A DNA stretch of 64,000 nt from Escherichia coli. Its GTDB lineage: Bacteria; Pseudomonadota; Gammaproteobacteria; Enterobacterales; Enterobacteriaceae. Location of the stretch: the NCBI RefSeq assembly GCF_013315695.1, contig NZ_CP054353.1; one strand, given 5' to 3'. Below the pieces are notes generated by a model. It saw only the letters and a list, made by a program, of their open reading frames with translations. It was not told the origin of the DNA and did no database searches. Below are positions 8,195 to 31,126 of the stretch, in pieces (positions within the stretch are counted from its first letter, which is position 1; the number at the start of each line of letters is the position of its first letter). The position numbers and the translations under genes are program-made.

Positions 8195-8330
8195 GATTAA
8201 TCCTTTAAACGAGTAGCTAAGCCGTTGAAAGCATACTCTTCTTTCCCTCCTGTTTAGCGCCTGTTCTCCCTTTTCAGATTTCTGCCCGACGCATGTCATT
8301 TTTTATGCATTGTTCTTTTTGTGATCTAAA

Positions 8331-8364: not shown

Positions 8365-8470
8365 CGCACACGGCAAACGCGAACGTCATCACGCTGGTAC
8401 TACAAAGTTGCCGCGTTATGCATCGATCGGGGTAAAGTAGAGAAGAACATACAGAGCACAAGGACTCTCC

Positions 8471-10035: not shown

Positions 10036-10636
10036 ACTCCCGCTGATCGCCATTTTGCGCGGCATTACGCCCGACGAGGCGCTGGCGCATGTTGGCGCGG
10101 TGATTGACGCTGGGTTCGACGCGGTAGAAATCCCGCTGAACTCTCCACTATGGGAACAAAGCATTCCCGCCATCGTTGATGCGCATGGCGACAAGGCGTT
10201 GATTGGCGCAGGTACGGTACTGAAACCTGAACAGGTCGATGCACTCGCCAGGATGGGCTGCCAGCTCATCGTTACGCCCAATATCCATAGTGAAGTGATC
10301 CGCCGTGCGGTGGGCTACGGCATGACCGTTTGCCCCGGCTGCGCGACGGCGACCGAAGCCTTTACCGCGCTCGACGCGGGCGCGCAGGCGCTGAAAATAT
10401 TTCCGTCATCGGCTTTTGGTCCGCAATACATCAAAGCGTTAAAAGCGGTATTACCACCGGACATCGCGGTCTTTGCCGTTGGCGGCGTGACGCCAGAAAA
10501 CCTGGCGCAGTGGATAGACGCAGGTTGTGCAGGGGCGGGCTTAGGCAGCGATCTCTATCGCGCCGGGCAATCCGTAGAACGCACCGCGCAGCAGGCAGCA
10601 GCATTTGTTAAGGCGTATCGAGAGGCAGTGCAATGA
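10019..10636 (+). CDS. dgoA: 2-dehydro-3-deoxy-6-phosphogalactonate aldolase DgoA, 205 aa
   Basis: ORF track; overlaps dgoK 3' end by 17 nt. Confidence 0.93.
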
Positions 10637-11589
10637 AAATCACCAAAATTACCACGTATCGTTTACCTCCCCGCTGGATGTTCCTGAAAATTGAAACCGA
10701 TGAAGGCGTGGTCGGCTGGGGCGAGCCCGTGATTGAAGGCCGCGCTCGCACTGTGGAAGCGGCAGTCCACGAGCTGAGTGACTATTTGATTGGTCAGGAC
10801 CCGTCACGCATCAACGACTTATGGCAAGTGATGTATCGCGCCGGATTTTATCGTGGCGGTCCGATTCTGATGAGTGCCATCGCCGGTATCGACCAGGCGT
10901 TATGGGATATCAAAGGCAAAGTGCTGAATGCGCCGGTGTGGCAACTGATGGGCGGCCTGGTTCGCGACAAAATTAAAGCCTACAGTTGGGTCGGCGGCGA
11001 TCGTCCGGCGGATGTTATCGACGGCATTAAAACCCTGCGCGAAATCGGCTTCGATACCTTCAAACTGAACGGTTGTGAAGAACTGGGGCTAATTGATAAC
11101 TCCCGCGCGGTAGATGCGGCAGTCAACACCGTGGCACAAATTCGTGAAGCCTTTGGCAATCAGATTGAGTTTGGTCTTGATTTCCACGGTCGCGTCAGCG
11201 CGCCGATGGCGAAAGTGCTGATTAAAGAACTGGAGCCGTATCGCCCGCTGTTTATTGAAGAGCCGGTGCTGGCGGAACAGGCCGAATACTACCCGAAACT
11301 GGCGGCACAAACACATATTCCTCTGGCGGCGGGTGAACGCATGTTCTCACGCTTCGATTTTAAACGCGTGCTGGAGGCGGGCGGTATTTCGATTCTGCAA
11401 CCAGATCTCTCTCATGCAGGCGGTATTACCGAATGCTACAAAATTGCCGGAATGGCAGAAGCCTATGACGTGACCCTTGCGCCGCACTGTCCGCTCGGAC
11501 CGATTGCACTGGCGGCTTGTCTGCATATCGACTTTGTTTCCTATAACGCCGTACTTCAGGAACAAAGTATGGGAATTCATTACAACAAA

Positions 11590-11598
11590 GGCGCGGAG
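11590..11598. repeat. IS1 target-site duplication, left copy (GGCGCGGAG)
   Basis: Identical 9-mer directly abuts both IS1 ends. Confidence 0.95.
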
Positions 11599-11653
11599 GG
11601 TGATGCTGCCAACTTACTGATTTAGTGTATGATGGTGTTTTTGAGGTGCTCCA

Positions 11654-11929
11654 GTGGCTTCTGTTTCTATCAGCTGTCCCTCCTGTTCAGCTACTGACGG
11701 GGTGGTGCGTAACGGCAAAAGCACCGCCGGACATCAGCGCTATCTCTGCTCTCACTGCCGTAAAACATGGCAACTGCAGTTCACTTACACCGCTTCTCAA
11801 CCCGGTACGCACCAGAAAATCATTGATATGGCCATGAATGGCGTTGGATGCCGGGCAACAGCCCGCATTATGGGCGTTGGCCTCAACACGATTTTACGTC
11901 ACTTAAAAAACTCAGGCCGCAGTCGGTAA
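11654..11929 (+). CDS. insA: IS1 InsA, 91 aa
   Basis: ORF track protein [39 protein letters not shown]..., recognised as IS1 InsA. Confidence 0.95.
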
Positions 11930-12351
11930 CCTCGCGCATACAGCCGGGCAGTGACGTCATCGTCTGCGCGGAAATGGACGAACAGTGGGGCTATGTCGGG
12001 GCTAAATCGCGCCAGCGCTGGCTGTTTTACGCGTATGACAGGCTCCGGAAGACGGTTGTTGCGCACGTATTCGGTGAACGCACTATGGCGACGCTGGGGC
12101 GTCTTATGAGCCTGCTGTCACCCTTTGACGTGGTGATATGGATGACGGATGGCTGGCCGCTGTATGAATCCCGCCTGAAGGGAAAGCTGCACGTAATCAG
12201 CAAGCGATATACGCAGCGAATTGAGCGGCATAACCTGAATCTGAGGCAGCACCTGGCACGGCTGGGACGGAAGTCGCTGTCGTTCTCAAAATCGGTGGAG
12301 CTGCATGACAAAGTCATCGGGCATTATCTGAACATAAAACACTATCAATAA
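11848..12351 (+). CDS. insB: IS1 InsB reading frame, 167 aa; expressed as the InsAB' transposase by -1 frameshift from insA
   Basis: ORF track 11848..12351 overlapping the insA 3' end in the -1 frame. Confidence 0.9.
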
Positions 12352-12366
12352 GTTGGAGTCATTACC

Positions 12367-12375
12367 GGCGCGGAG
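12367..12375. repeat. IS1 target-site duplication, right copy (GGCGCGGAG)
   Basis: Identical to 11590..11598. Confidence 0.95.
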
Positions 12376-12677
12376 TTACTCGACTTTGTGAAAAACAAAG
12401 AAGACTTCAGCATGGTTGGCGGCTTCTTTAAACCGCTAACGAAACCGGGCTTAGGCGTAGAAATCGACGAAGCTAAAGTTATTGAGTTCAGTAAAAATGC
12501 CCCGGACTGGCGTAATCCGCTCTGGCGTCATGAAGATAACAGCGTAGCAGAGTGGTAATTCCTGCCACGTAAGCCCCTCATCGGGCACTAAAACAGCAAT
12601 ACAAAAATATAACCCTCTGTAAATTACAGGGCATGGTGAGCGGCTTCGCTATGCCCAAAATCTGGAGAAAGCTCGCT

Positions 12678-13970
12678 ATGGATATTCCCGTTAATGCAGC
12701 AAAGCCGGGGCGTCGGCGTTATCTGACGCTGGTGATGATCTTTATTACGGTGGTCATTTGTTATGTTGACCGCGCTAACCTGGCCGTGGCTTCCGCCCAT
12801 ATTCAGGAAGAGTTCGGTATTACCAAAGCGGAAATGGGCTATGTATTTTCGGCCTTCGCCTGGCTTTATACGCTATGTCAGATCCCCGGTGGTTGGTTTT
12901 TAGATCGCGTAGGTTCACGCGTGACTTATTTTATTGCGATATTTGGCTGGTCAGTGGCGACGTTATTCCAGGGCTTTGCCACGGGATTAATGTCATTAAT
13001 TGGTCTGCGCGCGATAACCGGTATTTTCGAAGCGCCCGCTTTCCCGACCAATAACCGGATGGTGACCAGTTGGTTCCCGGAACATGAACGTGCTTCTGCC
13101 GTTGGTTTTTATACGTCTGGTCAGTTTGTCGGTCTGGCGTTTCTGACTCCGCTGCTGATCTGGATTCAGGAGATGTTGAGCTGGCACTGGGTGTTCATCG
13201 TCACCGGTGGTATCGGCATTATCTGGTCGCTGATTTGGTTTAAGGTTTATCAGCCGCCGCGCCTGACTAAAGGCATCAGCAAAGCTGAACTGGATTACAT
13301 TCGTGATGGCGGCGGTCTGGTGGATGGCGATGCGCCGGTGAAAAAAGAGGCGCGTCAGCCGTTAACAGCCAAAGACTGGAAACTGGTGTTCCATCGTAAA
13401 CTGATCGGTGTCTATCTTGGGCAATTTGCGGTGGCTTCTACACTGTGGTTTTTCTTAACCTGGTTCCCGAACTATTTAACCCAGGAAAAAGGAATCACGG
13501 CGCTGAAAGCAGGCTTTATGACCACGGTGCCGTTCCTCGCGGCGTTTATTGGCGTCCTGCTCTCTGGCTGGGTCGCGGATCTGCTGGTACGTAAGGGCTT
13601 TTCACTGGGCTTTGCGCGTAAAACGCCGATTATCTGCGGCTTGCTGATCTCCACCTGCATTATGGGCGCTAACTACACTAACGATCCGATGATGATTATG
13701 TGCCTGATGGCGCTGGCATTCTTCGGCAACGGTTTTGCTTCGATTACCTGGTCGCTGGTTTCTTCTCTGGCACCGATGCGCCTGATTGGTTTAACCGGCG
13801 GCGTGTTTAACTTTGCCGGTGGTCTGGGCGGCATCACTGTTCCGCTGGTGGTGGGGTACCTGGCGCAGGGTTACGGTTTCGCACCTGCACTGGTTTATAT
13901 CTCCGCCGTTGCGTTGATTGGCGCGCTCTCTTACATCCTGCTGGTGGGCGATGTGAAGCGCGTTGGCTAA
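12678..13970 (+). CDS. dgoT: D-galactonate:H+ symporter DgoT (MFS), 430 aa
   Basis: ORF track 12633..13970; start placed at the ATG giving [22 protein letters not shown]. Confidence 0.9.
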
Positions 13971-15031
13971 TCTTTCAACTGTGGAATATGCGCCACACCA
14001 CTGCGCATAATCCACTTTCTTAAAGCTGGTGCGGTCAGGCATCGGCTTTTTACTATTTTGCCGAAGAGTTTTAAACGCAGTTTGCGGGTGGCGCGCCAGT
14101 AGGCGGCGTTGCTCTTCTCCGGCTGCTTCAGTAACACCGAACGCAGAATCTCTGCGCTATCCAGCGCATAGCTAATCCCCTCCAGCGAACTGGCGCTGAT
14201 AAATCCCGCCGCTTCACCAATCAGAAAGGCGTTGTCCTTACCGCAGACAAAATCCTGCCAGCGTGAGGGAAACAGCACGGTACATTTCTCGCTTTTCACC
14301 GCTTTACCAAACTGGAACTGAAAGGCGTTCATTTTCTCTTTCAGCGTCGTGAAACGCGTCTGACCGTCTTTCATGGGATAGGCACCGCCAAAGATAAAAT
14401 AACCGTCTTTGCTGATACTCCATGAGTAACAGTCAGTTATCGCATTATCAAAGATGCAGGAGTAGAACGGCACCGGATGTTTCTCTGCGAACCACTGCTG
14501 GATAGCGACATATTTACGAATTTGATGATCCGGGTAGAGATGTCGCCGCACCATCGAGTTTGCGCCATCGGCACCGACCAGATAGCGGGCAGTAATATGC
14601 TGCTCCCAACCGTCTGCACGAAAAATGACATGCCATTTATCATCCTCACGCCAGATTTTTCGGCACAGGCTGTCGTGGTAAACCTCAACGCTGGCGGGGA
14701 TCAGCGATTTCATCCACAAGTCGAAAGCATGGCGATTAATATTGATATAGCTTCGCTGGTAGTTACGCGTGAGCGATGCGGCGACGTCGACAGTTTTGAC
14801 GCTGAAAATCTGTGGATTGGCGATCACATCGACAGGAAGCGTCAGTCCATCGCGAATAAAAGATCGCTGCGCGTCCGGTGCCAGCAGACCGCCGCAGGGT
14901 TTGCTGAAACCTTCAGTACCACACTGGTGCTTTTTATCCAGCGCGATCACCTGCATTTTGCTGGCTAACGTTCGTGCCAACACCGACCCTGCCGGGCCGA
15001 GGCCAATAATCGCCACGTCGAAATGTTCCAT
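13967..15031 (-). CDS. cbrA: FAD-dependent oxidoreductase CbrA (colicin E2 tolerance), 354 aa
   Basis: ORF track 13967..15052; start at the ATG giving [16 protein letters not shown] (FAD-binding GxGxxG). Confidence 0.88.
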
Positions 15032-15095
15032 CTTTTCACTCACATTCATCACGATGGCGAAAGACTATTGTCTGAAAGTGAAGTCCTTGTGAAGT

Positions 15096-16346
15096 ATGAT
15101 GGCGGGACCCGTTTTGTATCAGGACCGCGCCATGAAACAGATAACCTTTGCTCCCCGTAATCACCTGCTCACCAATACCAATACCTGGACGCCCGACAGC
15201 CAGTGGCTGGTATTTGACGTGCGTCCTTCTGGCGCGTCGTTTACCGGCGAGACCATTGAGCGTGTGAATATCCATACCGGCGAGGTCGAGGTTATCTATC
15301 GCGCGTCACAGGGCGCGTACGTTGGCGTGGTGACCGTTCATCCGAAGTCAGAGAAATATGTTTTCATCCACGGCCCGGAAAATCCTGATGAAACATGGTA
15401 TTACGACTTTCATCATCGGCGTGGAGTGATTGTTGAAGGCGGCAAGGTGAGCAATCTCGATGCAATGGATATTACCGCGCCGTACACCCCAGGAGCACTG
15501 CGCGGCGGCAGCCATGTGCATGTCTTTAGCCCGAACGGTGAAAGGGTGAGCTTTACCTATAACGACCATGTAATGCATCAACTCGATTCGGCGCTGGATT
15601 TGCGAAACGTCGGCGTGGCTGCACCGTTTGGCCCGGTCAACGTACAAAAGCAGCATCCGCGTGAATACAGCGGTAGCCACTGGTGCGTGCTGGTGAGTAA
15701 AACCACGCCCACGCCGCAGCCTGGCAGCGATGAAATCAATCGTGCTTATGAAGAAGGATGGGTAGGAAATCACGCGCTGGCGTTTATTGGCGACACACTT
15801 TCGCCAAAGGGCGAGAAAGTGCCGGAGCTATTTATCGTTGAGTTACCGCAAGATGAAGCTGGCTGGAAAGCGGCAGGTGATGCGCCGTTAAGTGGAACGG
15901 AAACAACCCTGCCCGCGCCACCGCGCGGCGTCGTGCAGCGACGTTTAACCTTTACCCACCATCGGGCTTATCCGGGGTTAGTCAACGTCCCGCGCCACTG
16001 GGTGCGCTGTAATCCGCAGGGTACGCAAATCGCGTTTTTAATGCGTGATGATAACGGCATTGTGCAACTGTGGCTTATCTCGCCACAGGGCGGCGAGCCG
16101 CGCCAGTTAACCCATAACAAAACGGATATTCAGTCTGCATTTAACTGGCATCCGTCAGGAGAATGGTTGGGCTTTGTGCTGGATAATCGAATTGCTTGCG
16201 CCCATGCGCAAAGCGGCGAGGTTGAGTATTTAACCGAAAACCACGCCAATCCACCTTCTGCGGACGCCGTGGTCTTCTCGCCGGATGGTCAATGGCTGGC
16301 GTGGATGGAAGGCGGCCAGCTGTGGATCACCGAAACTGATCGCTAA
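15096..16346 (+). CDS. yidR: Conserved beta-propeller-like protein YidR, about 415 aa
   Basis: ORF track; two adjacent ATG codons at 15096 and 15099, exact start uncertain. Confidence 0.85.
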   Translation: MMAGPVLYQDRAMKQITFAPRNHLLTNTNTWTPDSQWLVFDVRPSGASFTGETIERVNIHTGEVEVIYRASQGAYVGVVTVHPKSEKYVFIHGPENPDETWYYDFHHRRGVIVEGGKVSNLDAMDITAPYTPGALRGGSHVHVFSPNGERVSFTYNDHVMHQLDSALDLRNVGVAAPFGPVNVQKQHPREYSGSHWCVLVSKTTPTPQPGSDEINRAYEEGWVGNHALAFIGDTLSPKGEKVPELFIVELPQDEAGWKAAGDAPLSGTETTLPAPPRGVVQRRLTFTHHRAYPGLVNVPRHWVRCNPQGTQIAFLMRDDNGIVQLWLISPQGGEPRQLTHNKTDIQSAFNWHPSGEWLGFVLDNRIACAHAQSGEVEYLTENHANPPSADAVVFSPDGQWLAWMEGGQLWITETDR

Positions 16347-16347
16347 A

Positions 16348-16680
16348 TCAGTTATCAGGCATTCTGGCCGGTGGAATAACCGCATTGGTGGCTTGTGCGT
16401 TGGCTTCGCTTTTTTCAACGCGCGAGCGCACTGAGCTATCTTTGCGGAACACATCCCACGGTAGCAATATTGTGTCCAGTACTGCGGTAAATGGCATGTC
16501 GAGTATCGCCAGCGATTTTGTGCCCCAGTTGGTTTCATCGTCGCCAATCATAGTTGCGCTGGCGCGGGTGCCAGGATACGTTCCTTCTTTCCCCCCGGTA
16601 TGGGACATCACGCTGGAGCATCCTCCGAGTAATGTCATTCCGCTGCATATCATGAACGCTAACAACACATTTCTTATCAT
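16348..16680 (-). CDS. yidQ: Predicted outer-membrane lipoprotein YidQ, 110 aa
   Basis: ORF track 16348..16755; start trimmed to the ATG giving MIRNVLLAFMICSGMTLLGGCSS (lipobox). Confidence 0.82.
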   Translation of the reverse strand: MIRNVLLAFMICSGMTLLGGCSSVMSHTGGKEGTYPGTRASATMIGDDETNWGTKSLAILDMPFTAVLDTILLPWDVFRKDSSVRSRVEKSEANAQATNAVIPPARMPDN

Positions 16681-16854
16681 AATAAATTCATCTGTTGATC
16701 GTGGGTGTTGGCCTGATGAGTTATAGCGATCCCTTGCTGAAAATAACATCATCATTACGTCGCACTGTGGCGGCTATCGCACTTTAACGTTTCGTGCTGC
16801 CCCCTCAGTCTATGCAATAGACCATAAACTGCAAAAAAAAGTCCGCTGATAAGG

Positions 16855-16883
16855 CTTGAAAAGTTCATTTCCAGACCCATTTT
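16855..16883 (+). promoter_or_regulatory. Sigma-32 heat-shock promoter of ibpAB
   Basis: CTTGAAA (-35) and CCCATTT (-10) with 13-bp spacing, about 100 bp upstream of ibpA. Confidence 0.75.
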
Positions 16884-16889
16884 TACATC

Positions 16890-16985
16890 GTAGCCGATGA
16901 GGACGCGCCTGATGGGTGTTCTGGCTACCTGACCTGTCCATTGTGGAAGGTCTTAGATTCTCGCTGATTTCAGGAGCTATTGATT
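16890..16985 (+). promoter_or_regulatory. ibpA 5' UTR, expected ROSE-type RNA thermometer
   Basis: Position between the sigma-32 promoter and the ibpA start; structure not folded here, assignment from established knowledge. Confidence 0.5.
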
Positions 16986-17399
16986 ATGCGTAACTTTGAT
17001 TTATCCCCGCTTTACCGTTCTGCTATTGGATTTGACCGTTTGTTTAACCACTTAGAAAACAACCAGAGCCAGAGTAATGGCGGCTACCCTCCGTATAACG
17101 TTGAACTGGTAGACGAAAACCATTACCGCATTGCTATCGCTGTGGCTGGTTTTGCTGAGAGCGAACTGGAAATTACCGCCCAGGATAATCTGCTGGTGGT
17201 GAAAGGTGCTCACGCCGACGAACAAAAAGAGCGCACCTATCTGTACCAGGGCATCGCTGAACGCAACTTTGAACGCAAATTCCAGTTAGCTGAGAACATT
17301 CATGTTCGTGGTGCTAACTTGGTGAATGGTCTGCTGTATATCGATCTCGAACGCGTGATTCCGGAAGCGAAAAAACCGCGCCGTATCGAAATCAACTAA
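16986..17399 (+). CDS. ibpA: Small heat-shock protein IbpA, 137 aa
   Basis: ORF track 16980..17399; N-terminus [20 protein letters not shown]. Confidence 0.96.
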
Positions 17400-17510
17400 T
17401 TCCCTAAGGCCGCCTGGCGCGGCCTGACATTTCCATGCTCGCCGTCAGGGAGCATATGCGAATCTTCGGATTTGCAGGTACTTACTCGCTTCTTAGAAGG
17501 AGAAATGACT

Positions 17511-17939
17511 ATGCGTAACTTCGATTTATCCCCACTGATGCGTCAATGGATCGGTTTTGACAAACTGGCCAACGCACTGCAAAACGCCGGTGAAAGCCAG
17601 AGCTTCCCGCCGTACAACATTGAAAAAAGCGACGATAACCACTACCGCATTACCCTTGCGCTGGCAGGTTTTCGTCAGGAAGATTTAGAGATTCAACTGG
17701 AAGGTACGCGCCTGAGCGTAAAAGGCACGCCGGAGCAGCCAAAAGAAGAGAAAAAATGGCTGCATCAAGGGCTTATGAATCAGCCATTTAGCCTGAGCTT
17801 TACGCTGGCTGAAAATATGGAAGTCTCTGGTGCAACCTTCGTAAACGGTTTACTGCATATTGATTTAATTCGTAATGAGCCTGAACCCATCGCAGCGCAG
17901 CGTATCGCTATCAGCGAACGTCCCGCGTTAAATAGCTAA
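17511..17939 (+). CDS. ibpB: Small heat-shock protein IbpB, 142 aa
   Basis: ORF track 17472..17939; start at the ATG giving [20 protein letters not shown]. Confidence 0.96.
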
Positions 17940-17954
17940 CTAGCTATTCTCTTT

Positions 17955-17983
17955 GCCCCGCCATTCTGGTGGGGCTTTTTTTG
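17955..17983 (+). terminator. Rho-independent terminator of ibpAB
   Basis: GCCCCGCC...GGTGGGGC stem followed by an 8-T run. Confidence 0.8.
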
Positions 17984-18134
17984 TCTTTCTTCTTCAACAA
18001 TGCGTTAAATTTCGCCTGTTTAAGATATTTCGGCACGTTCTTTCCCGTGATAATGTGCGCTATAAGGCAAATCTGCTTCACCGATTCAGCCATAATCCGT
18101 AGCAATTAAAATGTTATCTCAAGAGAAATGGACG

Positions 18135-19796
18135 ATGAGTGATATAGCATTAACGGTCAGTATTCTGGCTTTGGTGGCAGTCGTCGGTTTGTTTATCGGC
18201 AACGTCAAATTTCGCGGCATAGGATTAGGTATTGGCGGCGTGCTGTTTGGTGGGATCATCGTCGGCCATTTTGTTTCTCAGGCGGGGATGACATTAAGTA
18301 GCGATATGCTGCATGTTATTCAGGAATTTGGCCTGATCCTGTTCGTTTATACCATCGGGATTCAGGTAGGGCCGGGCTTCTTTGCCTCATTGCGCGTCTC
18401 CGGATTACGCCTCAACCTGTTTGCTGTTCTGATCGTCATCATCGGGGGTCTGGTTACCGCCATCCTGCATAAACTGTTTGATATTCCACTGCCGGTAGTG
18501 CTGGGGATTTTCTCCGGTGCGGTAACCAATACGCCAGCGCTGGGGGCAGGGCAGCAGATCTTGCGCGACCTGGGTACACCAATGGAAATGGTCGATCAGA
18601 TGGGGATGAGTTACGCGATGGCGTATCCATTCGGTATTTGCGGGATTTTGTTCACCATGTGGATGTTGCGGGTTATGTTCCGCGTCAATGTCGAGACAGA
18701 AGCCCAGCAGCACGAGTCTTCTCGCACCAATGGCGGCGCGCTGATCAGGACTATCAATATTCGCGTTGAGAACCCTAACCTGCATGATTTAGCCATTAAA
18801 GATGTACCGATTCTCAACGGCGACAAAATTATCTGCTCGCGTCTGAAACGCGAAGAAACCCTAAAAGTACCTTCGCCAGATACCATTATCCAACTGGGCG
18901 ATTTGCTGCATCTGGTGGGGCAGCCAGCGGATTTACATAATGCGCAACTGGTGATTGGTCAGGAGGTCGATACCTCGCTGTCCACGAAAGGCACTGATTT
19001 ACGCGTCGAGCGTGTGGTGGTCACCAATGAAAACGTGCTTGGTAAGCGTATTCGCGACCTGCACTTTAAAGAACGCTATGACGTTGTTATCTCGCGCCTG
19101 AACCGTGCCGGGGTCGAACTGGTCGCCAGTGGCGATATCAGCCTGCAGTTCGGCGATATCCTCAACCTGGTGGGGCGTCCGTCCGCAATTGATGCCGTTG
19201 CCAATGTGCTGGGGAATGCGCAGCAAAAACTGCAACAGGTTCAGATGTTGCCGGTGTTTATTGGTATCGGGCTTGGCGTATTGTTAGGTTCTATTCCCGT
19301 CTTTGTGCCGGGATTCCCGGCCGCGTTGAAACTGGGGCTGGCGGGCGGTCCGCTGATTATGGCGTTGATCCTCGGGCGTATCGGCAGTATCGGCAAGCTG
19401 TACTGGTTTATGCCGCCAAGTGCCAACCTCGCGCTGCGGGAGCTGGGGATCGTACTGTTCCTCTCGGTAGTGGGGCTGAAATCTGGTGGGGATTTTGTAA
19501 ATACCCTGGTCAATGGCGAAGGGCTAAGCTGGATTGGTTATGGTGCGCTGATCACCGCCGTTCCGCTGATTACTGTTGGCATTCTGGCGCGGATGTTAGC
19601 CAAAATGAATTACCTGACCATGTGCGGGATGCTGGCTGGCTCCATGACCGATCCACCGGCGCTGGCGTTTGCTAATAATCTTCATCCAACCAGCGGTGCG
19701 GCGGCGCTTTCTTACGCCACTGTCTATCCGTTGGTGATGTTCCTGCGCATTATCACCCCCCAATTACTGGCGGTGCTCTTCTGGAGTATCGGTTAA
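18135..19796 (+). CDS. yidE: Putative AAE-family transporter YidE with two TrkA-C domains, 553 aa
   Basis: ORF track 18111..19796; start at the ATG giving [20 protein letters not shown]. Confidence 0.9.
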
Positions 19797-20237
19797 CTCT
19801 TTTCCGGGTGGAGTCGCCGTAAATGGTACTCCACCTGGTATTCGCTGGCATTTCTGAACATTACTGAATAATTCAAAAACTCCCCGCTCTCGCTATATGA
19901 CAACGAGGTGATCCGCAGCAGTGGCGTGTGTTCCGCTACCTTCATTTGCCGCGCCAGCAGTCTATCGGCGAGCACCAGCGTCAGGCTTTCATAATTACCG
20001 CCAATCAGAATCCCGCACTCTTGTTCAATATATTCAAACTTCGACCCTTCCAGATGTTGCAGCGAAAGGTTACGGAACAGTTTTACCGGCATATAGCTGT
20101 CTTCCAGCATCAGCGGTTTCCCTTCCACAAAACGAACGCGACGGGAGAAGTAGATCTGCTCGTTGATTTGAATCCGTAACTGGCTGGCAATGGCCGGAGG
20201 CGCAGGCATGATTTCAAAAATCAGCACCTGGCTGGTG
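19793..20237 (-). pseudogene. yidP: 5'-truncated yidP (GntR-family regulator): only the C-terminal ~148 codons (effector/UTRA-type domain) remain
   Basis: Reading frame is open from the IS4 boundary at 20237 to the stop at 19793 with no ATG at its 5' end; the N-terminal HTH-encoding part is absent from the window. Confidence 0.8.
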
Positions 20238-20255
20238 TAATGCCGATCAGTTAAG
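20238..20255. repeat. IS4 left terminal inverted repeat
   Basis: TAATGCCGATCAGTTAAG matches the reverse complement of the right end in 16 of 18 positions. Confidence 0.85.
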
Positions 20256-20321
20256 GATCAGTTGACCGATCCAGTGGCTGTGTAAGAATCCGGAAACGCT
20301 CACTTGTTTCCGGATTTTTTT

Positions 20322-21650
20322 ATGCACATTGGACAGGCTCTTGATCTGGTATCCCGTTACGATTCTCTGCGTAACCCACTGACTTCTCTGGGGGATTACC
20401 TCGACCCCGAACTCATCTCTCGTTGCCTTGCCGAATCAGGTACTGTAACGCTACGCAAGCGCCGTCTTCCCCTCGAAATGATGGTCTGGTGTATTGTTGG
20501 CATGGCGCTTGAGCGTAAAGAACCTCTTCACCAGATTGTGAATCGCCTGGACATCATGCTGCCGGGCAATCGCCCCTTCGTTGCCCCCAGTGCCGTTATT
20601 CAGGCCCGCCAGCGCCTGGGAAGTGAGGCTGTCCGCCGCGTGTTCACGAAAACAGCGCAGCTCTGGCATAACGCCACGCCGCATCCGCACTGGTGCGGCC
20701 TGACCCTGCTGGCCATCGATGGTGTGTTCTGGCGCACACCGGATACACCAGAGAACGATGCAGCCTTCCCCCGCCAGACACATGCCGGGAACCCGGCGCT
20801 CTACCCGCAGGTCAAAATGGTCTGCCAGATGGAACTGACCAGCCATCTGCTGACGGCTGCAGCCTTCGGCACGATGAAGAACAGCGAAAATGAGCTTGCT
20901 GAGCAACTTATAGAACAAACCGGCGATAACACTCTGACGTTAATGGATAAAGGTTATTACTCACTGGGACTGTTAAATGCCTGGAGCCTGGCGGGAGAAC
21001 ACCGCCACTGGATGATACCTCTCAGAAAGGGAGCGCAATATGAAGAGATCAGAAAACTGGGTAAAGGCGATCATCTGGTGAAGCTGAAAACCAGCCCGCA
21101 GGCACGAAAAAAGTGGCCGGGACTGGGAAATGAAGTGACAGCCCGCCTGCTGACCGTGACGCGCAAAGGAAAAGTCTGCCATCTGCTGACGTCGATGACG
21201 GACGCCATGCGCTTCCCCGGAGGAGAAATGGCGGATCTGTACAGTCATCGCTGGGAAATCGAACTGGGATACAGGGAGATAAAACAGACGATGCAACTGA
21301 GCAGGCTGACGCTGAGAAGTAAAAAACCGGAGCTTGTGGAGCAAGAGCTGTGGGGTGTCTTACTGGCTTATAATCTGGTGAGATATCAGATGATTAAAAT
21401 GGCGGAACATCTGAAAGGTTACTGGCCGAATCAACTGAGTTTCTCAGAATCATGCGGAATGGTGATGAGAATGCTGATGACATTGCAGGGCGCTTCACCG
21501 GGACGTATACCGGAGCTGATGCGCGATCTTGCAAGTATGGGACAACTTGTGAAATTACCGACAAGAAGGGAAAGGGCCTTCCCGAGAGTGGTAAAGGAGA
21601 GGCCCTGGAAATACCCCACAGCCCCGAAAAAGAGCCAGTCAGTTGCTTAA
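20322..21650 (+). CDS. insG: IS4 transposase, 442 aa
   Basis: ORF track 20304..21650; start at the ATG giving [24 protein letters not shown], recognised as the IS4 transposase. Confidence 0.92.
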
Positions 21651-21663
21651 CTGACTGGCATTA
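21646..21663. repeat. IS4 right terminal inverted repeat
   Basis: Reverse complement TAATGCCAGTCAGTTAAG. Confidence 0.85.
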
Positions 21664-21808
21664 CTCAAAGGGGGGGTATTTTTCTTTGAGCCAGGTTAAT
21701 GTGGCCGCATTTAGGAGTACGATTTTGCCGTTAATCGTGCATACTGTGCGCTTTTTTGTGGGCCAAGGGACTAAGCACACATTTCATATTTCAACGAAAG
21801 ACTAGTCT

Positions 21809-23677
21809 ATGAGCACTGATAATAAGCAATCATTGCCCGCGATTACCCTCGCGGCGATTGGAGTTGTCTACGGCGATATTGGTACCAGCCCGTTATATAC
21901 ACTTCGTGAATGTTTGTCCGGCCAGTTTGGTTTTGGCGTTGAACGCGATGCCGTGTTTGGCTTTTTATCGCTGATCTTCTGGCTGCTAATCTTTGTGGTT
22001 TCCATTAAATATCTCACCTTCGTGATGCGGGCAGATAACGCCGGTGAAGGGGGGATCCTGACGTTGATGTCGCTTGCCGGGCGTAATACGTCGGCGCGAA
22101 CCACATCAATGCTGGTGATTATGGGGCTAATCGGCGGCAGCTTTTTCTATGGTGAAGTCGTCATAACACCCGCTATTTCGGTGATGTCAGCCATTGAAGG
22201 TCTGGAAATCGTCGCCCCGCAGCTGGATACCTGGATAGTTCCCCTCTCAATTATCGTTCTCACTTTATTATTTATGATTCAAAAACATGGCACGGCTATG
22301 GTCGGTAAGCTGTTTGCACCGATCATGCTGACCTGGTTTTTGATTCTGGCAGGGCTGGGGTTACGTAGCATTATTGCTAACCCGGAAGTGCTGCATGCAC
22401 TGAATCCGATGTGGGCGGTGCATTTCTTCCTTGAATACAAAACGGTTTCTTTTATTGCATTAGGGGCAGTGGTGCTGTCGATTACGGGGGTCGAGGCGCT
22501 GTATGCTGATATGGGGCACTTTGGTAAGTTCCCTATTCGTCTGGCGTGGTTCACCGTCGTATTGCCTTCCTTAACCCTTAATTACTTCGGCCAGGGAGCG
22601 CTGTTGTTAAAGAATCCGGAAGCGATTAAGAACCCGTTCTTCCTGTTGGCACCGGACTGGGCGCTGATCCCGCTGCTGATCATCGCCGCACTGGCGACGG
22701 TAATTGCCTCGCAGGCGGTTATCTCTGGCGTCTTCTCATTGACGCGTCAGGCGGTACGTCTGGGATATTTGTCGCCGATGCGCATTATTCACACCTCCGA
22801 AATGGAGTCAGGGCAAATCTATATTCCGTTTGTGAACTGGATGCTCTATGTCGCGGTCGTGATTGTGATTGTCAGCTTTGAGCACTCCAGCAACCTGGCG
22901 GCGGCGTACGGGATTGCGGTGACCGGAACCATGGTGCTGACGTCTATTCTCTCGACTACCGTGGCACGTCAGAACTGGCACTGGAATAAGTATTTTGTTG
23001 CGCTGATCCTGATTGCTTTCCTTTGTGTCGATATTCCATTGTTCACCGCTAACCTCGATAAACTGCTCTCCGGCGGCTGGTTGCCATTGAGCCTCGGTAC
23101 GGTGATGTTTATCGTGATGACCACCTGGAAGAGCGAACGTTTCCGTTTGCTGCGGCGGATGCATGAACATGGTAACTCTCTGGAGGCGATGATTGCTTCG
23201 CTGGAGAAATCACCGCCCGTTCGCGTGCCCGGGACCGCGGTGTATATGTCACGTGCAATCAACGTCATTCCCTTTGCGCTGATGCATAACCTTAAACATA
23301 ACAAGGTATTGCATGAGCGGGTGATTCTGTTAACTTTGCGCACCGAAGACGCGCCTTATGTCCATAACGTCCGTCGGGTACAGATTGAACAACTGTCGCC
23401 CACTTTCTGGCGCGTGGTGGCAAGTTATGGTTGGCGAGAAACGCCAAACGTGGAAGAAGTTTTCCACCGCTGCGGTCTGGAAGGATTAAGTTGCCGGATG
23501 ATGGAAACCTCCTTCTTTATGTCGCATGAGTCGTTGATCCTCGGCAAACGCCCGTGGTATTTGCGTCTGCGCGGCAAGCTGTACTTGCTGCTGCAACGTA
23601 ATGCGCTGCGTGCGCCGGATCAATTTGAAATCCCGCCAAACAGGGTTATCGAACTGGGTACTCAGGTCGAAATCTAA
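21809..23677 (+). CDS. kup: Low-affinity K+ uptake protein Kup (TrkD), 622 aa
   Basis: ORF track; only 145 bp of native upstream sequence lie between the IS4 right end and the start codon. Confidence 0.96.
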
Positions 23678-23812
23678 CGCCAGACGCCTCCTTTCTCCAT
23701 AAGGGGGCGTTTTTGTTTTCATGGTTAATCACCATGTAAAACGTTTCGAAGTTGATCACATTTCCGTAACGTCACGATGGTTTTCCCAACTCAGTCAGGA
23801 TTAAACTGCGGG

Positions 23813-23832
23813 TCAGCGAAACGTTTCGCTGA
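23813..23832 (+). promoter_or_regulatory. RbsR operator in the rbs promoter region
   Basis: Perfect 20-bp palindrome TCAGCGAAACGTTTCGCTGA 12 bp upstream of rbsD, typical LacI/GalR-family operator. Confidence 0.85.
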
Positions 23833-23843
23833 TGGAGAAAAAA

Positions 23844-24263
23844 ATGAAAAAAGGCACCGTTCTTAATTCTGATATTTCATCGGTGATCTCCCGTCTGGGA
23901 CATACCGATACGCTGGTGGTGTGTGATGCTGGTTTACCCATCCCCAAAAGTACAACGCGTATCGATATGGCATTAACCCAGGGGGTACCTTCTTTTATGC
24001 AGGTGCTGGGCGTCGTCACAAATGAAATGCAGGTCGAAGCTGCCATTATCGCGGAAGAGATCAAACAACATAATCCGCAACTCCACGAAACGTTGCTCAC
24101 TCACCTTGAGCAGCTGCAAAAACACCAGGGAAATACCATTGAAATTCGTTACACCACGCATGAACAATTCAAACAACAAACCGCAGAAAGTCAGGCGGTA
24201 ATTCGCAGCGGAGAATGTTCTCCGTATGCGAATATCATTCTCTGTGCTGGCGTGACGTTCTGA
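23844..24263 (+). CDS. rbsD: D-ribose pyranase RbsD, 139 aa
   Basis: ORF track 23832..24263; start at the ATG giving [20 protein letters not shown]. Confidence 0.93.
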
Positions 24264-24270
24264 GGCCGTC

Positions 24271-25776
24271 ATGGAAGCATTACTTCAGCTTAAAGGCATC
24301 GATAAAGCCTTCCCGGGCGTAAAAGCCCTCTCGGGCGCAGCGTTAAATGTCTATCCGGGCCGCGTGATGGCGCTGGTGGGCGAAAACGGCGCGGGTAAAT
24401 CCACCATGATGAAAGTGCTTACTGGTATCTATACTCGCGATGCCGGCACGCTTTTATGGCTGGGGAAAGAAACGACATTTACCGGGCCAAAGTCTTCCCA
24501 GGAAGCCGGGATTGGGATTATCCACCAGGAACTGAACCTGATCCCGCAGTTAACCATTGCCGAAAACATTTTCCTCGGTCGTGAGTTTGTTAATCGCTTT
24601 GGCAAAATTGACTGGAAAACCATGTATGCCGAAGCGGATAAATTGCTGGCTAAACTTAACCTGCGCTTTAAAAGCGACAAGCTGGTGGGCGATCTTTCCA
24701 TCGGTGACCAGCAAATGGTTGAAATCGCCAAAGTGCTGAGCTTTGAGTCGAAAGTCATCATTATGGATGAACCGACCGATGCGCTGACCGATACCGAAAC
24801 CGAATCCTTGTTCCGCGTCATCCGCGAGCTGAAATCGCAAGGCCGCGGTATTGTCTATATTTCCCACCGCATGAAAGAAATCTTCGAGATTTGCGATGAC
24901 GTTACCGTTTTTCGTGACGGGCAATTTATTGCTGAGCGTGAAGTAGCATCACTGACCGAAGATTCGCTGATTGAGATGATGGTGGGCCGCAAGCTGGAAG
25001 ATCAATATCCGCACCTGGACAAAGCGCCAGGAGATATTCGCCTGAAAGTCGATAATCTCTGCGGACCTGGCGTTAACGATGTCTCTTTTACTTTACGCAA
25101 AGGCGAAATTCTTGGCGTCTCTGGTTTGATGGGCGCAGGTCGTACCGAACTGATGAAAGTGCTCTACGGCGCACTGCCGCGCACCAGCGGTTACGTCACC
25201 CTGGATGGGCATGAAGTCGTTACCCGTTCACCGCAGGATGGCCTGGCAAACGGCATTGTGTATATCTCCGAAGACCGTAAACGTGACGGTTTAGTGCTGG
25301 GCATGTCAGTAAAAGAGAACATGTCGCTGACAGCGCTGCGCTACTTCAGCCGCGCTGGCGGCAGTTTGAAGCATGCCGATGAACAGCAGGCAGTAAGTGA
25401 TTTCATTCGTCTGTTTAATGTGAAAACGCCGTCAATGGAACAGGCAATTGGTCTGCTCTCCGGTGGCAATCAGCAAAAAGTGGCGATTGCCCGTGGTCTG
25501 ATGACACGCCCCAAAGTGTTGATCCTCGATGAGCCTACCCGTGGCGTAGATGTCGGCGCGAAAAAAGAGATCTATCAACTGATTAACCAGTTCAAAGCCG
25601 ATGGCTTGAGCATCATTCTGGTGTCATCGGAGATGCCAGAAGTATTAGGCATGAGCGATCGCATCATCGTCATGCATGAAGGGCATCTCAGCGGGGAATT
25701 TACTCGTGAGCAGGCCACCCAGGAAGTGTTAATGGCTGCCGCTGTGGGCAAGCTTAATCGCGTGAATCAGGAGTAA
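24271..25776 (+). CDS. rbsA: Ribose ABC transporter ATP-binding protein RbsA, 501 aa
   Basis: ORF track; two ABC ATPase domains (GENGAGKST and GLMGAGRTE Walker A motifs). Confidence 0.96.
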
Positions 25777-25780
25777 AAAA

Positions 25781-26746
25781 ATGACAACCCAGACTGTCTC
25801 TGGTCGCCGTTATTTCACGAAAGCGTGGCTGATGGAGCAGAAATCGCTTATCGCTCTGCTGGTGCTGATCGCGATTGTCTCGACGTTAAGCCCGAACTTT
25901 TTCACCATCAATAACTTATTCAATATTCTCCAGCAAACCTCGGTGAACGCCATTATGGCGGTCGGGATGACGCTGGTGATCCTGACGTCGGGCATCGACT
26001 TGTCGGTAGGTTCTCTATTGGCGCTGACCGGCGCAGTTGCTGCATCTATCGTTGGCATTGAAGTCAATGCGCTGGTGGCTGTCGCTGCCGCTCTCGCGTT
26101 AGGTGCCGCAATTGGTGCGGTAACCGGGGTGATTGTAGCGAAAGGTCGCGTCCAGGCCTTTATCGCTACGCTGGTTATGATGCTTTTACTGCGCGGCGTG
26201 ACCATGGTTTATACCAACGGTAGCCCAGTGAATACTGGCTTTACTGAGAACGCCGATCTGTTTGGCTGGTTTGGTATTGGTCGTCCGCTGGGCGTACCGA
26301 CGCCAGTCTGGATCATGGGAATTGTCTTCCTCGCGGCCTGGTACATGCTGCATCACACGCGTCTGGGGCGTTACATCTACGCGCTGGGCGGCAACGAAGC
26401 GGCAACGCGTCTTTCTGGTATCAACGTCAATAAAATCAAAATCATCGTCTATTCTCTTTGTGGTCTGCTGGCATCGCTGGCCGGGATCATTGAAGTGGCG
26501 CGTCTCTCCTCCGCACAACCCACGGCGGGGACTGGCTATGAGCTGGATGCTATTGCTGCGGTGGTTCTGGGCGGTACGAGTCTGGCGGGCGGAAAAGGTC
26601 GCATTGTTGGGACGTTGATCGGCGCATTAATTCTTGGCTTCCTTAATAATGGATTGAATTTGTTAGGTGTTTCCTCCTATTACCAGATGATCGTCAAAGC
26701 GGTGGTGATTTTGCTGGCGGTGCTGGTAGACAACAAAAAGCAGTAA
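25781..26746 (+). CDS. rbsC: Ribose ABC transporter permease RbsC, 321 aa
   Basis: ORF track; hydrophobic polytopic protein in operon position. Confidence 0.95.
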   Translation: MTTQTVSGRRYFTKAWLMEQKSLIALLVLIAIVSTLSPNFFTINNLFNILQQTSVNAIMAVGMTLVILTSGIDLSVGSLLALTGAVAASIVGIEVNALVAVAAALALGAAIGAVTGVIVAKGRVQAFIATLVMMLLLRGVTMVYTNGSPVNTGFTENADLFGWFGIGRPLGVPTPVWIMGIVFLAAWYMLHHTRLGRYIYALGGNEAATRLSGINVNKIKIIVYSLCGLLASLAGIIEVARLSSAQPTAGTGYELDAIAAVVLGGTSLAGGKGRIVGTLIGALILGFLNNGLNLLGVSSYYQMIVKAVVILLAVLVDNKKQ

Positions 26747-26770
26747 TAACGACTACAGGACATCTTGAAT

Positions 26771-27661
26771 ATGAATATGAAAAAACTGGCTACCCTGGTT
26801 TCCGCTGTTGCGCTAAGCGCCACCGTCAGTGCGAATGCGATGGCAAAAGATACCATCGCGCTGGTGGTCTCCACGCTTAACAACCCGTTCTTTGTATCGC
26901 TGAAAGATGGCGCGCAGAAAGAGGCGGATAAACTTGGCTATAACCTGGTGGTGCTGGACTCCCAGAACAACCCGGCGAAAGAGCTGGCGAACGTGCAGGA
27001 CTTAACCGTTCGCGGCACCAAAATTCTGCTGATTAACCCGACCGACTCCGACGCAGTGGGTAATGCTGTGAAGATGGCTAACCAGGCGAACATCCCGGTT
27101 ATCACTCTTGACCGCCAGGCAACGAAAGGTGAAGTGGTGAGCCACATTGCTTCTGATAACGTACTGGGCGGCAAAATCGCCGGTGATTACATCGCGAAGA
27201 AAGCGGGTGAAGGTGCCAAAGTTATCGAGCTGCAAGGCATTGCCGGTACATCTGCAGCCCGTGAACGTGGCGAAGGCTTCCAGCAGGCTGTTGCTGCTCA
27301 CAAGTTTAATGTTCTTGCCAGCCAGCCAGCAGATTTTGATCGCACTAAAGGTTTGAACGTAATGCAGAACCTGTTGACCGCACATCCGGATGTTCAGGCT
27401 GTATTCGCGCAGAATGATGAAATGGCGCTGGGCGCGCTGCGCGCACTGCAAACTGCCGGTAAATCGGATGTGATGGTCGTCGGATTTGACGGTACACCGG
27501 ATGGCGAAAAAGCGGTGAATGATGGCAAACTAGCAGCGACTATCGCTCAGCTACCCGATCAGATTGGCGCGAAAGGCGTCGAAACCGCAGATAAAGTGCT
27601 GAAAGGCGAGAAAGTTCAGGCTAAGTATCCGGTTGATCTGAAACTGGTTGTTAAGCAGTAG
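26771..27661 (+). CDS. rbsB: Periplasmic ribose-binding protein RbsB, 296 aa
   Basis: ORF track 26765..27661; start at the ATG giving [25 protein letters not shown] (signal peptide). Confidence 0.95.
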
Positions 27662-27785
27662 TTTTAATCAGGTTGTATGACCTGATGGTGACATAAATAC
27701 GTCATCGACAGATGAACGTGTATATAAAGAAAAGCAGGGCACGCGCCACCCTAACACGGTGGCGCATTTTATGGACATCCCGAAT

Positions 27786-28715
27786 ATGCAAAACGCAGGC
27801 AGCCTCGTTGTTCTTGGCAGCATTAATGCTGACCACATTCTTAATCTTCAATCTTTTCCTACCCCAGGCGAAACCGTAACCGGTAACCACTATCAGGTTG
27901 CATTTGGCGGCAAAGGCGCGAATCAGGCTGTGGCTGCTGGGCGTAGCGGTGCGAATATCGCGTTTATTGCCTGTACGGGTGATGACAGTATTGGTGAGAG
28001 CGTTCGCCAGCAGCTCGCCACTGATAACATTGATATTTCTCCGGTCAGCGTGATCAAAGGCGAATCAACAGGTGTGGCGCTGATTTTTGTTAATGGCGAA
28101 GGTGAGAATGTCATTGGTATTCATGCCGGCGCTAATGCTGCCCTTTCCCCGGCGCTGGTGGAAGCGCAACGTGAGCGTATTGCCAACGCGTCAGCATTAT
28201 TAATGCAGCTGGAATCACCACTCGAAAGTGTGATGGCAGCGGCGAAAATCGCCCATCAAAATAAGACTATCGTTGCGCTTAACCCGGCTCCGGCTCGCGA
28301 ACTTCCTGACGAACTGCTGGCGCTGGTGGACATTATTACGCCAAACGAAACGGAAGCAGAAAAGCTCACCGGTATTCGTGTTGAAAATGATGAAGATGCA
28401 GCGAAGGCGGCGCAGGTACTGCATGAAAAAGGTATCCGTACTGTACTGATTACTTTAGGAAGTCGTGGTGTATGGGCTAGCGTGAATGGTGAAGGTCAGC
28501 GCGTTCCTGGATTCCGGGTGCAGGCTGTCGATACCATTGCTGCCGGAGATACCTTTAACGGCGCGTTAATCACGGCGTTGCTGGAAGAAAAACCATTGCC
28601 AGAGGCGATTCGGTTTGCCCATGCTGCCGCTGCGATTGCCGTAACACGTAAAGGCGCACAACCTTCCGTACCGTGGCGTGAAGAGATCGACGCATTTTTA
28701 GACAGGCAGAGGTGA
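27786..28715 (+). CDS. rbsK: Ribokinase RbsK, 309 aa
   Basis: ORF track 27759..28715; start at the ATG giving MQNAGSLVVLGSINADHIL. Confidence 0.95.
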   Translation: MQNAGSLVVLGSINADHILNLQSFPTPGETVTGNHYQVAFGGKGANQAVAAGRSGANIAFIACTGDDSIGESVRQQLATDNIDISPVSVIKGESTGVALIFVNGEGENVIGIHAGANAALSPALVEAQRERIANASALLMQLESPLESVMAAAKIAHQNKTIVALNPAPARELPDELLALVDIITPNETEAEKLTGIRVENDEDAAKAAQVLHEKGIRTVLITLGSRGVWASVNGEGQRVPGFRVQAVDTIAAGDTFNGALITALLEEKPLPEAIRFAHAAAAIAVTRKGAQPSVPWREEIDAFLDRQR

Positions 28716-28718
28716 CGC

Positions 28719-29711
28719 TTGGCTACAATGAAAGATGTTGCCCGCCTGGCGGGCGTTTCTACCTCAACAGTTTCTCACGTTATCAATAAAGATCGCTTCG
28801 TCAGTGAAGCGATTACCGCCAAAGTTGAAGCGGCGATTAAAGAACTCAATTACGCGCCATCAGCTCTGGCGCGTAGCCTCAAACTCAATCAAACACATAC
28901 CATTGGCATGTTGATCACTGCCAGTACCAATCCTTTCTATTCAGAACTGGTGCGTGGCGTTGAACGCAGCTGCTTCGAACGCGGTTATAGTCTCGTCCTT
29001 TGCAATACCGAAGGCGATGAACAGCGGATGAATCGCAATCTGGAAACGCTGATGCAAAAACGCGTTGATGGCTTGCTGTTACTGTGCACCGAAACGCATC
29101 AGCCTTCGCGTGAAATCATGCAACGTTATCCGACAGTGCCTACTGTGATGATGGACTGGGCTCCGTTCGATGGCGACAGCGATCTTATTCAGGATAACTC
29201 GTTGCTGGGCGGAGACTTAGCAACGCAATATCTGATCGATAAAGGTCATACCCGTATTGCCTGTATTACCGGTCCGCTGGATAAAACTCCGGCGCGCCTG
29301 CGGTTGGAAGGTTATCGGGCAGCGATGAAACGTGCGGGTCTCAACATTCCTGATGGCTATGAAGTCACTGGTGATTTTGAATTTAACGGCGGGTTTGACG
29401 CTATGCGCCAACTGTTATCACATCCGCTGCGTCCTCAGGCTGTCTTTACCGGAAATGACGCTATGGCTGTTGGCGTTTACCAGGCGTTATATCAGGCAGA
29501 GTTACAGGTTCCGCAGGATATCGCGGTGATTGGCTATGACGATATCGAACTGGCAAGCTTTATGACGCCACCATTAACAACTATCCACCAACCGAAAGAT
29601 GAACTGGGGGAGCTGGCGATTGATGTACTCATCCATCGGATAACCCAACCGACCCTTCAGCAACAACGATTACAACTTACTCCGATTCTGATGGAACGCG
29701 GTTCGGCTTAG
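28719..29711 (+). CDS. rbsR: LacI-family ribose operon repressor RbsR, 330 aa
   Basis: ORF track; N-terminal [27 protein letters not shown]. Confidence 0.95.
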
Positions 29712-31104: not shown

Positions 31105-31126
31105 TCAATGTCCTGTTATCGGGGTG

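Follow-up and report, generated by a model that had tools for sequence, protein, structure and literature searches.

Large rearrangements in evolving Escherichia coli mostly arise by recombination between copies of insertion sequences (IS) (PMC4173774), and inverted repeats placed on different replichores give inversions that do not switch genes between the leading and lagging strands (PMC9297083). In the long-term evolution experiment (Raeside et al. 2014), IS recombination produced inversions of 164 kb to 1.8 Mb, some of which affect the origin macrodomain and changed replichore symmetry by a few percent with no obvious cost (PMC4173774). E. coli K-12 W3110 carries an inversion around oriC between rrnD and rrnE (Hayashi et al. 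2006, cited in PMC4585315), and comparisons between genomes have revealed inversions symmetric about the origin (Eisen et al. 2000; see PMC9297083 and PMC11602124 for discussion). At the locus described here, recombination between two IS4 copies has very probably inverted a segment of ~72 kb with dnaA and oriC, as judged from the sequences of the junctions and of related genomes. The window, i.e. the whole 64,000-nucleotide stretch of E. coli contig NZ_CP054353.1 that was analyzed, has the following features.

1..1404, + strand: dnaA, inside the putatively inverted segment; the window begins at its first base (MSB1_4I annotation of near-identical sequence)
18135..19796, + strand: yidE, last intact gene ahead of the junction (annotation of identical MSB1_4I sequence)
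19793..20236, − strand: 3' fragment of yidP (GntR-family regulator, UTRA domain), cut by IS4
20225..20237, strand not applicable: CACCTGGCTGGTG, the half of the yidP-insertion duplication (13 bp) that lies left of IS4
20238..21663, + strand: full-length IS4 (1426 bp), the presumed recombinant copy at the inversion junction
20238..20255, + strand: left terminal inverted repeat of IS4, TAATGCCGATCAGTTAAG
20322..21650, + strand: intact IS4 transposase ORF, 442 aa, Nterm_IS4 and DDE_Tnp_1 domains
21646..21663, + strand: right terminal inverted repeat of IS4, CTTAACTGACTGGCATTA
21664..21675, strand not applicable: CTCAAAGGGGGG, the half of the ravA–kup-insertion duplication (12 bp) that lies right of IS4
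21664..21808, + strand: rest of the ravA–kup intergenic region, 145 bp, upstream of kup
21809..23677, + strand: kup (ATG at 21809), first gene beyond the putatively inverted segment
32300..37527, + strand: rrnC operon (16S, tRNA-Glu, 23S, 5S, tRNA-Asp, tRNA-Trp), with 16S at 32300..33841
56771..58030, + strand: rho

The IS4 copy agrees with the annotated IS4 of K-12 MG1655 at 1422 of 1426 positions (99.7%; four differences), and its two terminal inverted repeats match each other at 16 of 18 positions, which bears out an earlier reading of this DNA from sequence alone (the sequence-only reading) as a full-length element with intact ends. Pfam domains PF13006 and PF01609 were found on the 442-aa transposase of an identical IS4 in L014. 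A simple IS4 insertion is flanked by a direct target-site duplication of 11–13 bp; such duplications flank other copies of the element, including that of K-12 (CAGAACCAAGAT at each end) and the two parental copies of the sister genomes described below. Comparison of the flanks of the window's copy revealed none (left, CACCTGGCTGGTG; right, CTCAAAGGGGGG), and the unrelated flanks reported before were seen again on re-inspection, which gave no matching direct repeat. The missing duplication is expected of a recombinant IS4, because each flank then represents one parental duplication. The unmatched flanks are no argument against the element being IS4.

Both flanks also have the identities proposed for them. 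The left one is yidP without its 5' end; the identical sequence in MSB1_4I is annotated as "GntR family regulator, missing N-terminus", and the 138-aa product of the truncated gene matches PF07702. The right one is the upstream region of kup, with 145 bp between the IS4 end and the kup ATG. The coordinates of dnaA, kup, rrnC, and rho place all four genes on the same (+) strand, as previously noted. In MG1655, yidP (3,863,899) is followed by dnaA (3,882,326–3,883,729, − strand), oriC (3,925,744–3,925,975), and kup (3,931,316, + strand), in agreement with the K-12 order and strands given in the sequence-only reading. In MG1655, the two flanks of the window's IS4 map to yidE/yidP and between ravA and kup, with their relative strands opposed. 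Both IS4 target sequences are single-copy, unoccupied sites in that genome: CACCTGGCTGGTG occurs once, in yidP, and CTCAAAGGGGGG once, in the ravA–kup intergenic region.

The inferred parental arrangement is found in MSB1_4I and AF3, near-identical sister genomes that both carry the two parental IS4 insertions with perfect duplications (13 bp in yidP and 12 bp upstream of kup). The former duplication, CACCTGGCTGGTG, brackets the yidP IS4 of MSB1_4I and several other assemblies, and the latter, CTCAAAGGGGGG, the kup-side IS4 of AF10 and MSB1_4I. In MSB1_4I, the two IS4 copies are inverted relative to each other and enclose dnaA and oriC at a spacing of 71,613 bp; the oriC of MG1655 maps to ~5,231,965–5,232,196, at distances of 5.3 kb and 66.3 kb from the two copies. 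AF3 has the same arrangement, with the IS4 copies on opposite strands. The pair is identical in MSB1_4I, and the window's IS4 is identical to both of its members; in AF3 the two copies differ by 1 nt, but the window agrees with MSB1_4I.

The window differs from MSB1_4I by one SNP over positions 1..21663 (within 1..10300, the SNP is at 6823), and positions 21664..64000 differ from the reverse complement of MSB1_4I at ~10 positions, mostly in rrnC. The window is a third member of the MSB1_4I/AF3 clone, the genomes of which carry ~18 IS4 copies each. The possibility that it is an artificial splice of MSB1_4I was considered and rejected, in view of scattered SNPs relative to both MSB1_4I and AF3. 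The junction IS4 of the window has one half of each parental duplication.

These observations point to the following course of events. The ancestor would have carried one IS4 in yidP and an identical IS4 145 bp upstream of kup, in opposite orientation, the two enclosing 71.6 kb that hold dnaA, the atp operon, oriC, and asnA–ravA. Homologous recombination, presumably RecA-dependent, between these two 1426-bp inverted repeats would flip the intervening segment and leave two recombinant IS4 copies, each with one half of each original duplication; the window would hold the recombinant in which the 3' part of yidP, IS4, and kup are joined. Identity of the two parental copies in MSB1_4I prevents the crossover from being located within IS4, and the recombination mechanism itself is inferred. 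An inversion between two inverted IS4 copies, as the sequence-only reading had suggested, is supported by the parental sisters and by the swapped half-duplications.

The same rearrangement is present in other assemblies. In GCA_964055605.1, the junction of the window is identical over 12,417 bp (0 mismatches), and the same contig contains the reciprocal junction, in which ravA is joined through IS4 to the 5' part of yidP with the complementary half-duplications at its flanks ((T)CTCAAAGGGGGG, IS4, CACCTGGCTGGTG). The two junctions are 71,612 bp apart (71,613 bp in MSB1_4I), and a lineage-specific gene in the interior has the strand expected from a simple inversion and departs by no more than 1 bp from the expected position. 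OZ039495.1 likewise has the reciprocal junction with half-duplications and the same placement of the interior marker. Both junctions were found by exact-protein look-ups, in assemblies outside the RefSeq complete set. Neither the 5.5-kb junction nor a synthetic 4.4-kb reciprocal junction had a match in the RefSeq complete set of 5,426 E. coli genomes. This absence initially suggested a one-off event or an artefact, an interpretation that was given up when both junctions were found elsewhere. Short metagenome or short-read contigs (with a 144-aa truncated YidP), in which the 3' part of yidP and IS4 are joined to various other flanks, were set aside and are not counted as evidence, because a 1.4-kb multi-copy repeat is beyond short-read resolution.

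The alternative that survives best, although improbable, is an assembly artefact, in which a collapsed IS4 repeat was traversed incorrectly, so that the 3' part of yidP was joined to kup. IS4 is indeed highly repeated in the clone (~18 copies), inverted repeats permit a closed circle in either orientation, and the junction is in 0 of the 5,426 RefSeq complete genomes. However, at least two other assemblies have the reciprocal junction together with an interior that agrees with it, and GCA_964055605.1 has the window's junction too, on the same contig and identical over 12.4 kb; these inversion-bearing assemblies may share a single sequencing project and pipeline. Random mis-bridging among ~18 copies would not keep choosing the same pair, long reads easily cross a 1.4-kb repeat, and a second IS4 inversion in the clone has been seen by two sequencing technologies, in Broad scaffolds of 2013 as well as in recent closed assemblies. 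Misassembly is therefore unlikely in view of the matching junction, the reciprocal junction, and the interior marker in other assemblies.

It is still less likely that the IS4 transposase made the junction, by intramolecular transposition or a composite-transposon event instead of homologous recombination. The transposase ORF is intact, and the ravA–kup site is a repeated IS4 target, occupied in both orientations across different strains. Nevertheless, the closest relatives already carry both insertions, each with its own duplication, and the four junction flanks correspond precisely to these duplications with their halves exchanged; neither a fresh duplication nor an additional IS copy is present. 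IS4-family elements move by cut-and-paste, which would not give this swapped-half pattern. That the window's arrangement is ancestral and that of MSB1_4I and AF3 derived is hardly credible, the symmetry of inversion being its sole point of support, since MG1655 is annotated with the standard order, the window's junction is missing from all RefSeq complete genomes searched, and matched duplications, which transposition produces in pairs, occur only in the MSB1_4I/AF3 arrangement.

The IS4-mediated inversion would have limited consequences for the chromosome. With oriC inside the inverted segment, according to the mapping of the MG1655 oriC onto MSB1_4I, the origin would be reversed and displaced by ~61 kb toward the yidP/glv side, and the dnaA-to-yidE part would have moved to the replichore of kup, rrnC, and rho. 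GC skew is positive throughout the window, showing no break at 20238..21663. Gene orientation relative to the replication fork is kept and the GC skew unbroken, because the segment spans oriC, with one end on each replichore. On the MSB1_4I backbone, and assuming that the rest of the genome is collinear, the replichores change from 49.8/50.2% to 48.7/51.3%, and the ~61-kb shift of oriC equals 1.2% of the chromosome. The expectation of preserved orientation and a shifted oriC was thus correct, whereas the description of the replichores as unequal was overstated, the change being 1.2% only. Imbalance is said to matter at ~10% or more (as cited in PMC4173774) or at 20% or more (PMC4585315); the effect on chromosome balance is small and far below these values. 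The inversion disrupts no further gene, since yidP was already split and IS4 already located upstream of kup beforehand.

A second oriC-spanning IS4 inversion, between the yidP copy and an IS4 in yigE, was found in OZ039802.1, KE137068.1, and KE137073.1. It has in common with the yidP–kup inversion the anchor copy in yidP, the spanning of oriC, and the signature of swapped half-duplications (CACCTGGCTGGTG and CACCTTCTGCTG), and differs from it in that the partner IS4 is located between uvrD and corA and the segment measures ~146 kb. The yidP–yigE carriers have one SNP in common, which suggests a single inherited event. In the 6.3-kb flank common to the carriers of the yidP–kup inversion, all SNPs are private, a pattern compatible with either one or several origins. 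The clone accordingly comprises three structural states: parental, yidP–kup inverted, and yidP–yigE inverted. As the IS4 in yidP recombines with at least two partners (the kup-side copy and that in yigE), we propose, tentatively and as something short of probable, that the oriC region of this IS4-rich clone flips recurrently and possibly reversibly. If so, related isolates, or even the cells of one culture, could differ in the orientation and position of oriC (by at least 61 kb) and in the replichore of dnaA, providing a natural system in which to measure how inversions near the origin affect fitness and replication.

For assembly quality control, the case shows that recombination junctions can be recognized reliably by an IS copy that lacks its target-site duplication, and that sister genomes allow the parental state to be recovered. 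In assemblies rotated to start at dnaA on the + strand, an inverted isolate appears with the whole remaining chromosome reverse-complemented.

Altogether, the rearrangement is an ordinary structural variant formed by a well-known mechanism, with nothing mechanistically new. As in W3110, inverted repeats on opposite replichores recombine and a segment with oriC flips, gene orientation is kept, and the strain is viable. The repeats in W3110 are ~5-kb rRNA operons and the inversion, of several hundred kb, is nearly symmetric, whereas here 1.4-kb IS4 copies bound a 72-kb segment in which oriC lies off-center, 5.3 kb from one copy and 66.3 kb from the other. The inversions of the long-term evolution experiment, in which the repeats involved were reportedly IS1 and IS150, are of laboratory origin, unlike the present 72-kb IS4 inversion in clinical isolates. 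A small, asymmetric, origin-spanning inversion segregates in a clinical E. coli clone, and the chromosome organization tolerates it well. The symmetric origin inversions seen in genome comparisons likewise involve inter-replichore repeats and keep the leading/lagging assignment; in contrast to them, the present case is a polymorphism within one clone, with the parental and derived states both sampled and both sets of duplications still readable.

The junction at the IS4 copy of the window very probably arose by an inversion across the replication origin, through recombination between two inverted IS4 copies. The features that bear on this reading are listed here by position.

Position 1, + strand: first base of dnaA
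Between dnaA and the yidP fragment: dnaN, recF, gyrB, the dgo genes, ibpAB, and yidE, in order
19793..20236, − strand: 3' part of yidP
20238..21663: full-length IS4, after the yidP fragment
Start codon 145 bp past the IS4 end, + strand: kup
Downstream of kup: the rbs operon, rrnC, ilv genes, rep, and rho, in order
16S at 32300, + strand: rrnC
56771..58030, + strand: rho

The IS4 copy is 1426 bp long, with an intact transposase ORF (442 aa) and terminal inverted repeats matching at 16 of 18 positions, and differs at 4 positions from the IS4 annotated in K-12 MG1655, which has a 12-bp target-site duplication. Comparison of the left 13 bases (CACCTGGCTGGTG) with the right 12 bases (CTCAAAGGGGGG) flanking the window copy revealed no target-site duplication, the two flanks being unlike. 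The sequence-only reading, which had described a full-length element with unrelated flanks 145 bp from the kup start, was thus accurate in every detail checked, and the K-12 gene order that it gave is borne out by the MG1655 coordinates: yidP (3,863,899, +) and kup (3,931,316, +) are 67 kb apart, with dnaA (minus strand) and oriC (3,925,744–3,925,975) between them. The window, with dnaA and kup on one strand, therefore truly departs from the standard order. Both insertion sites are empty in MG1655, each flank occurring once (yidP at 3,864,171 and the ravA–kup spacer at 3,931,171).

Both parental insertions implied by the proposed inversion are present in MSB1_4I (NZ_LR898874.1) and AF3 (NZ_OZ547117.1), sister genomes of the window's clone with the same arrangement. 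MSB1_4I differs from window 1..21663 by 1 SNP and, in reverse complement, from window 21664..64000 by ~10 differences, mostly within rrnC. Its yidP-side IS4 is a simple insertion with CACCTGGCTGGTG at both ends, and its kup-side IS4, between ravA and kup, has CTCAAAGGGGGG at both ends. The two copies are opposite in strand, do not differ from each other or from the window IS4, and are separated by 71,613 bp containing dnaA, tnaA, pst, glmS, the atp operon, mnmG, oriC, mioC, asnA, and ravA. Judged by these duplications, the window IS4 combines the left half of the yidP one with the right half of the kup-side one, the signature that would be expected of reciprocal recombination between the yidP-side and kup-side copies; since the copies are inverted, the product of such recombination is an inversion, not a deletion.

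Several other features were seen in this comparison. The rrnC promoter region (window 32064..32084) has a 20-bp patch unlike MSB1_4I (4 substitutions and 3 indels), and 16S and 23S have single differences; these probably reflect gene conversion among rrn operons or an inter-assembly polishing difference. In the window, MSB1_4I, and AF3, dgoD is split by IS1 (window 11597..12366); an identical IS1 on the same strand lies in tnaB of MSB1_4I, ~19 kb off and beyond dnaA; the two are direct repeats, and dnaA would be lost if they recombined. An intact PemK/MazF-family toxin gene (window 50364..50813, minus strand) is located between rep and ppiC, with no partner antitoxin annotated beside it in MSB1_4I.

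Other carriers were searched for by exact matching of the truncated YidP products to a far larger collection of assemblies, and the inversion was found in at least two assemblies among the matches listed. The 3' fragment (138 aa) occurs widely and is indexed in 579 blocks. In contig CAXKQU010000001.1 (GCA_964055605.1), it adjoins IS4, kup, rbsD, rbsA, and rbsC, in a locus identical to window 13793..26209 at 12,417/12,417 bases. The same contig has the 95-aa YidP 5' fragment adjoining IS4, ravA, viaA, asnA, and asnC, and this IS4 is flanked by (T)CTCAAAGGGGGG and CACCTGGCTGGTG, which exactly complement the window pair. The two junction copies are 71,612 bp apart (71,613 bp in MSB1_4I), and a lineage-specific 395-aa interior gene (2,573,848–2,575,035, minus strand) has the strand, and to within 1 bp the position, that a simple flip of the segment in MSB1_4I would give it. 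Both the reciprocal junction and the placement of the interior gene recur in OZ039495.1 (GCA_964044265.1). The reciprocal junction foreseen from the window thus exists in sister assemblies, and the main rival explanation, that the window junction is a misassembly, is weakened by the presence of this reciprocal, with matching interior placement, in at least two other assemblies, by the base-for-base presence of the window junction in one of them, and by the unchanged length of the inverted segment in that assembly. A rearrangement made by transposase does not fit, as both insertions pre-exist, each with its own duplication, and neither a new duplication nor an extra IS4 copy is seen. The window arrangement as the ancestral state is excluded by the duplication pattern, the standard order of MG1655, and the occurrence of the window junction in 0 of 5,426 RefSeq complete E. 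coli genomes.

Metagenome and short-read contigs of ~2 kb also join the yidP 3' part and IS4 to several other flanks, for example near rplI; these are probably repeat-traversal chimeras of short-read assemblers, not real rearrangements.

Among the 5,426 RefSeq complete E. coli genomes surveyed, the left junction of the yidP insertion occurs in 2, and the ravA–IS4 and IS4–kup ends of the kup-side insertion in 36 each, so that neither end is in excess; neither the hybrid junction of the window nor its predicted reciprocal was found in this set. The ravA–kup spacer (window 21664..21675) is a repeatedly used IS4 target. The kup-side IS4 has the window's orientation in 36 of these genomes, and VR50 has IS4 (3288..4720 of its locus) at the identical site, with the same 12-bp duplication, in the opposite orientation, in which a crossover with the yidP IS4 would remove oriC rather than invert it. 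The window's clone (MSB1_4I, AF3, and relatives) has ~16–18 IS4 copies per chromosome versus 1 in MG1655, and IS4-matching places reach 33–34 in some E. coli genomes.

In MSB1_4I, the kup-side IS4 is 5.3 kb from oriC and the yidP-side IS4 66.3 kb, so that the inversion turns oriC around and shifts it by ~61 kb (1.16% of the chromosome). With dif at 2,583,938, the replichores of the MSB1_4I backbone change from 2,630,005/2,648,128 bp to 2,569,038/2,709,095 bp, or 48.7/51.3% if the source genome is otherwise collinear with MSB1_4I. Little effect in E. coli has been reported for imbalances below ~10% (PMC4173774), and strains with an imbalance of at least 20% show abnormality (PMC4585315). With one endpoint on each replichore, no gene switches between leading and lagging strands, in line with the general principle (PMC9297083), and GC skew is positive throughout the junction, as anticipated for an inversion that moves oriC with gene orientation relative to the origin kept. 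No further gene is broken; yidP was split beforehand, and IS4 already lay 145 bp upstream of kup. In the MSB1_4I terminus (2,570,000–2,619,999), the lsrK-to-ydeE block has the order opposite to that expected from MG1655 collinearity and adjoins IS4, IS1, IS2, and prophage remnants, with dif amid pseudogene fragments; it may be a further IS-associated rearrangement.

A second origin-spanning inversion in the clone pairs the yidP IS4 with a copy inside yigE, which lies between uvrD and corA and has the duplication CACCTTCTGCTG; its junctions are ~146 kb apart. Its carriers, OZ039802.1, KE137068.1, and KE137073.1 (2013 scaffolds and a recent closed assembly), have a common SNP, which suggests inheritance of a single event. 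In this clone the origin region may flip repeatedly, the yidP IS4 having kup-side and yigE partners.

Literature searches found no published description of the window's particular inversion, which is well documented here since parental and derived states have both been sampled. It is a fresh instance of an already known kind of event, inversion between repeat copies across the origin; comparable cases are the inversion around oriC in W3110 (cited in PMC4585315) and those mediated by IS copies in the long-term evolution experiment (PMC4173774).
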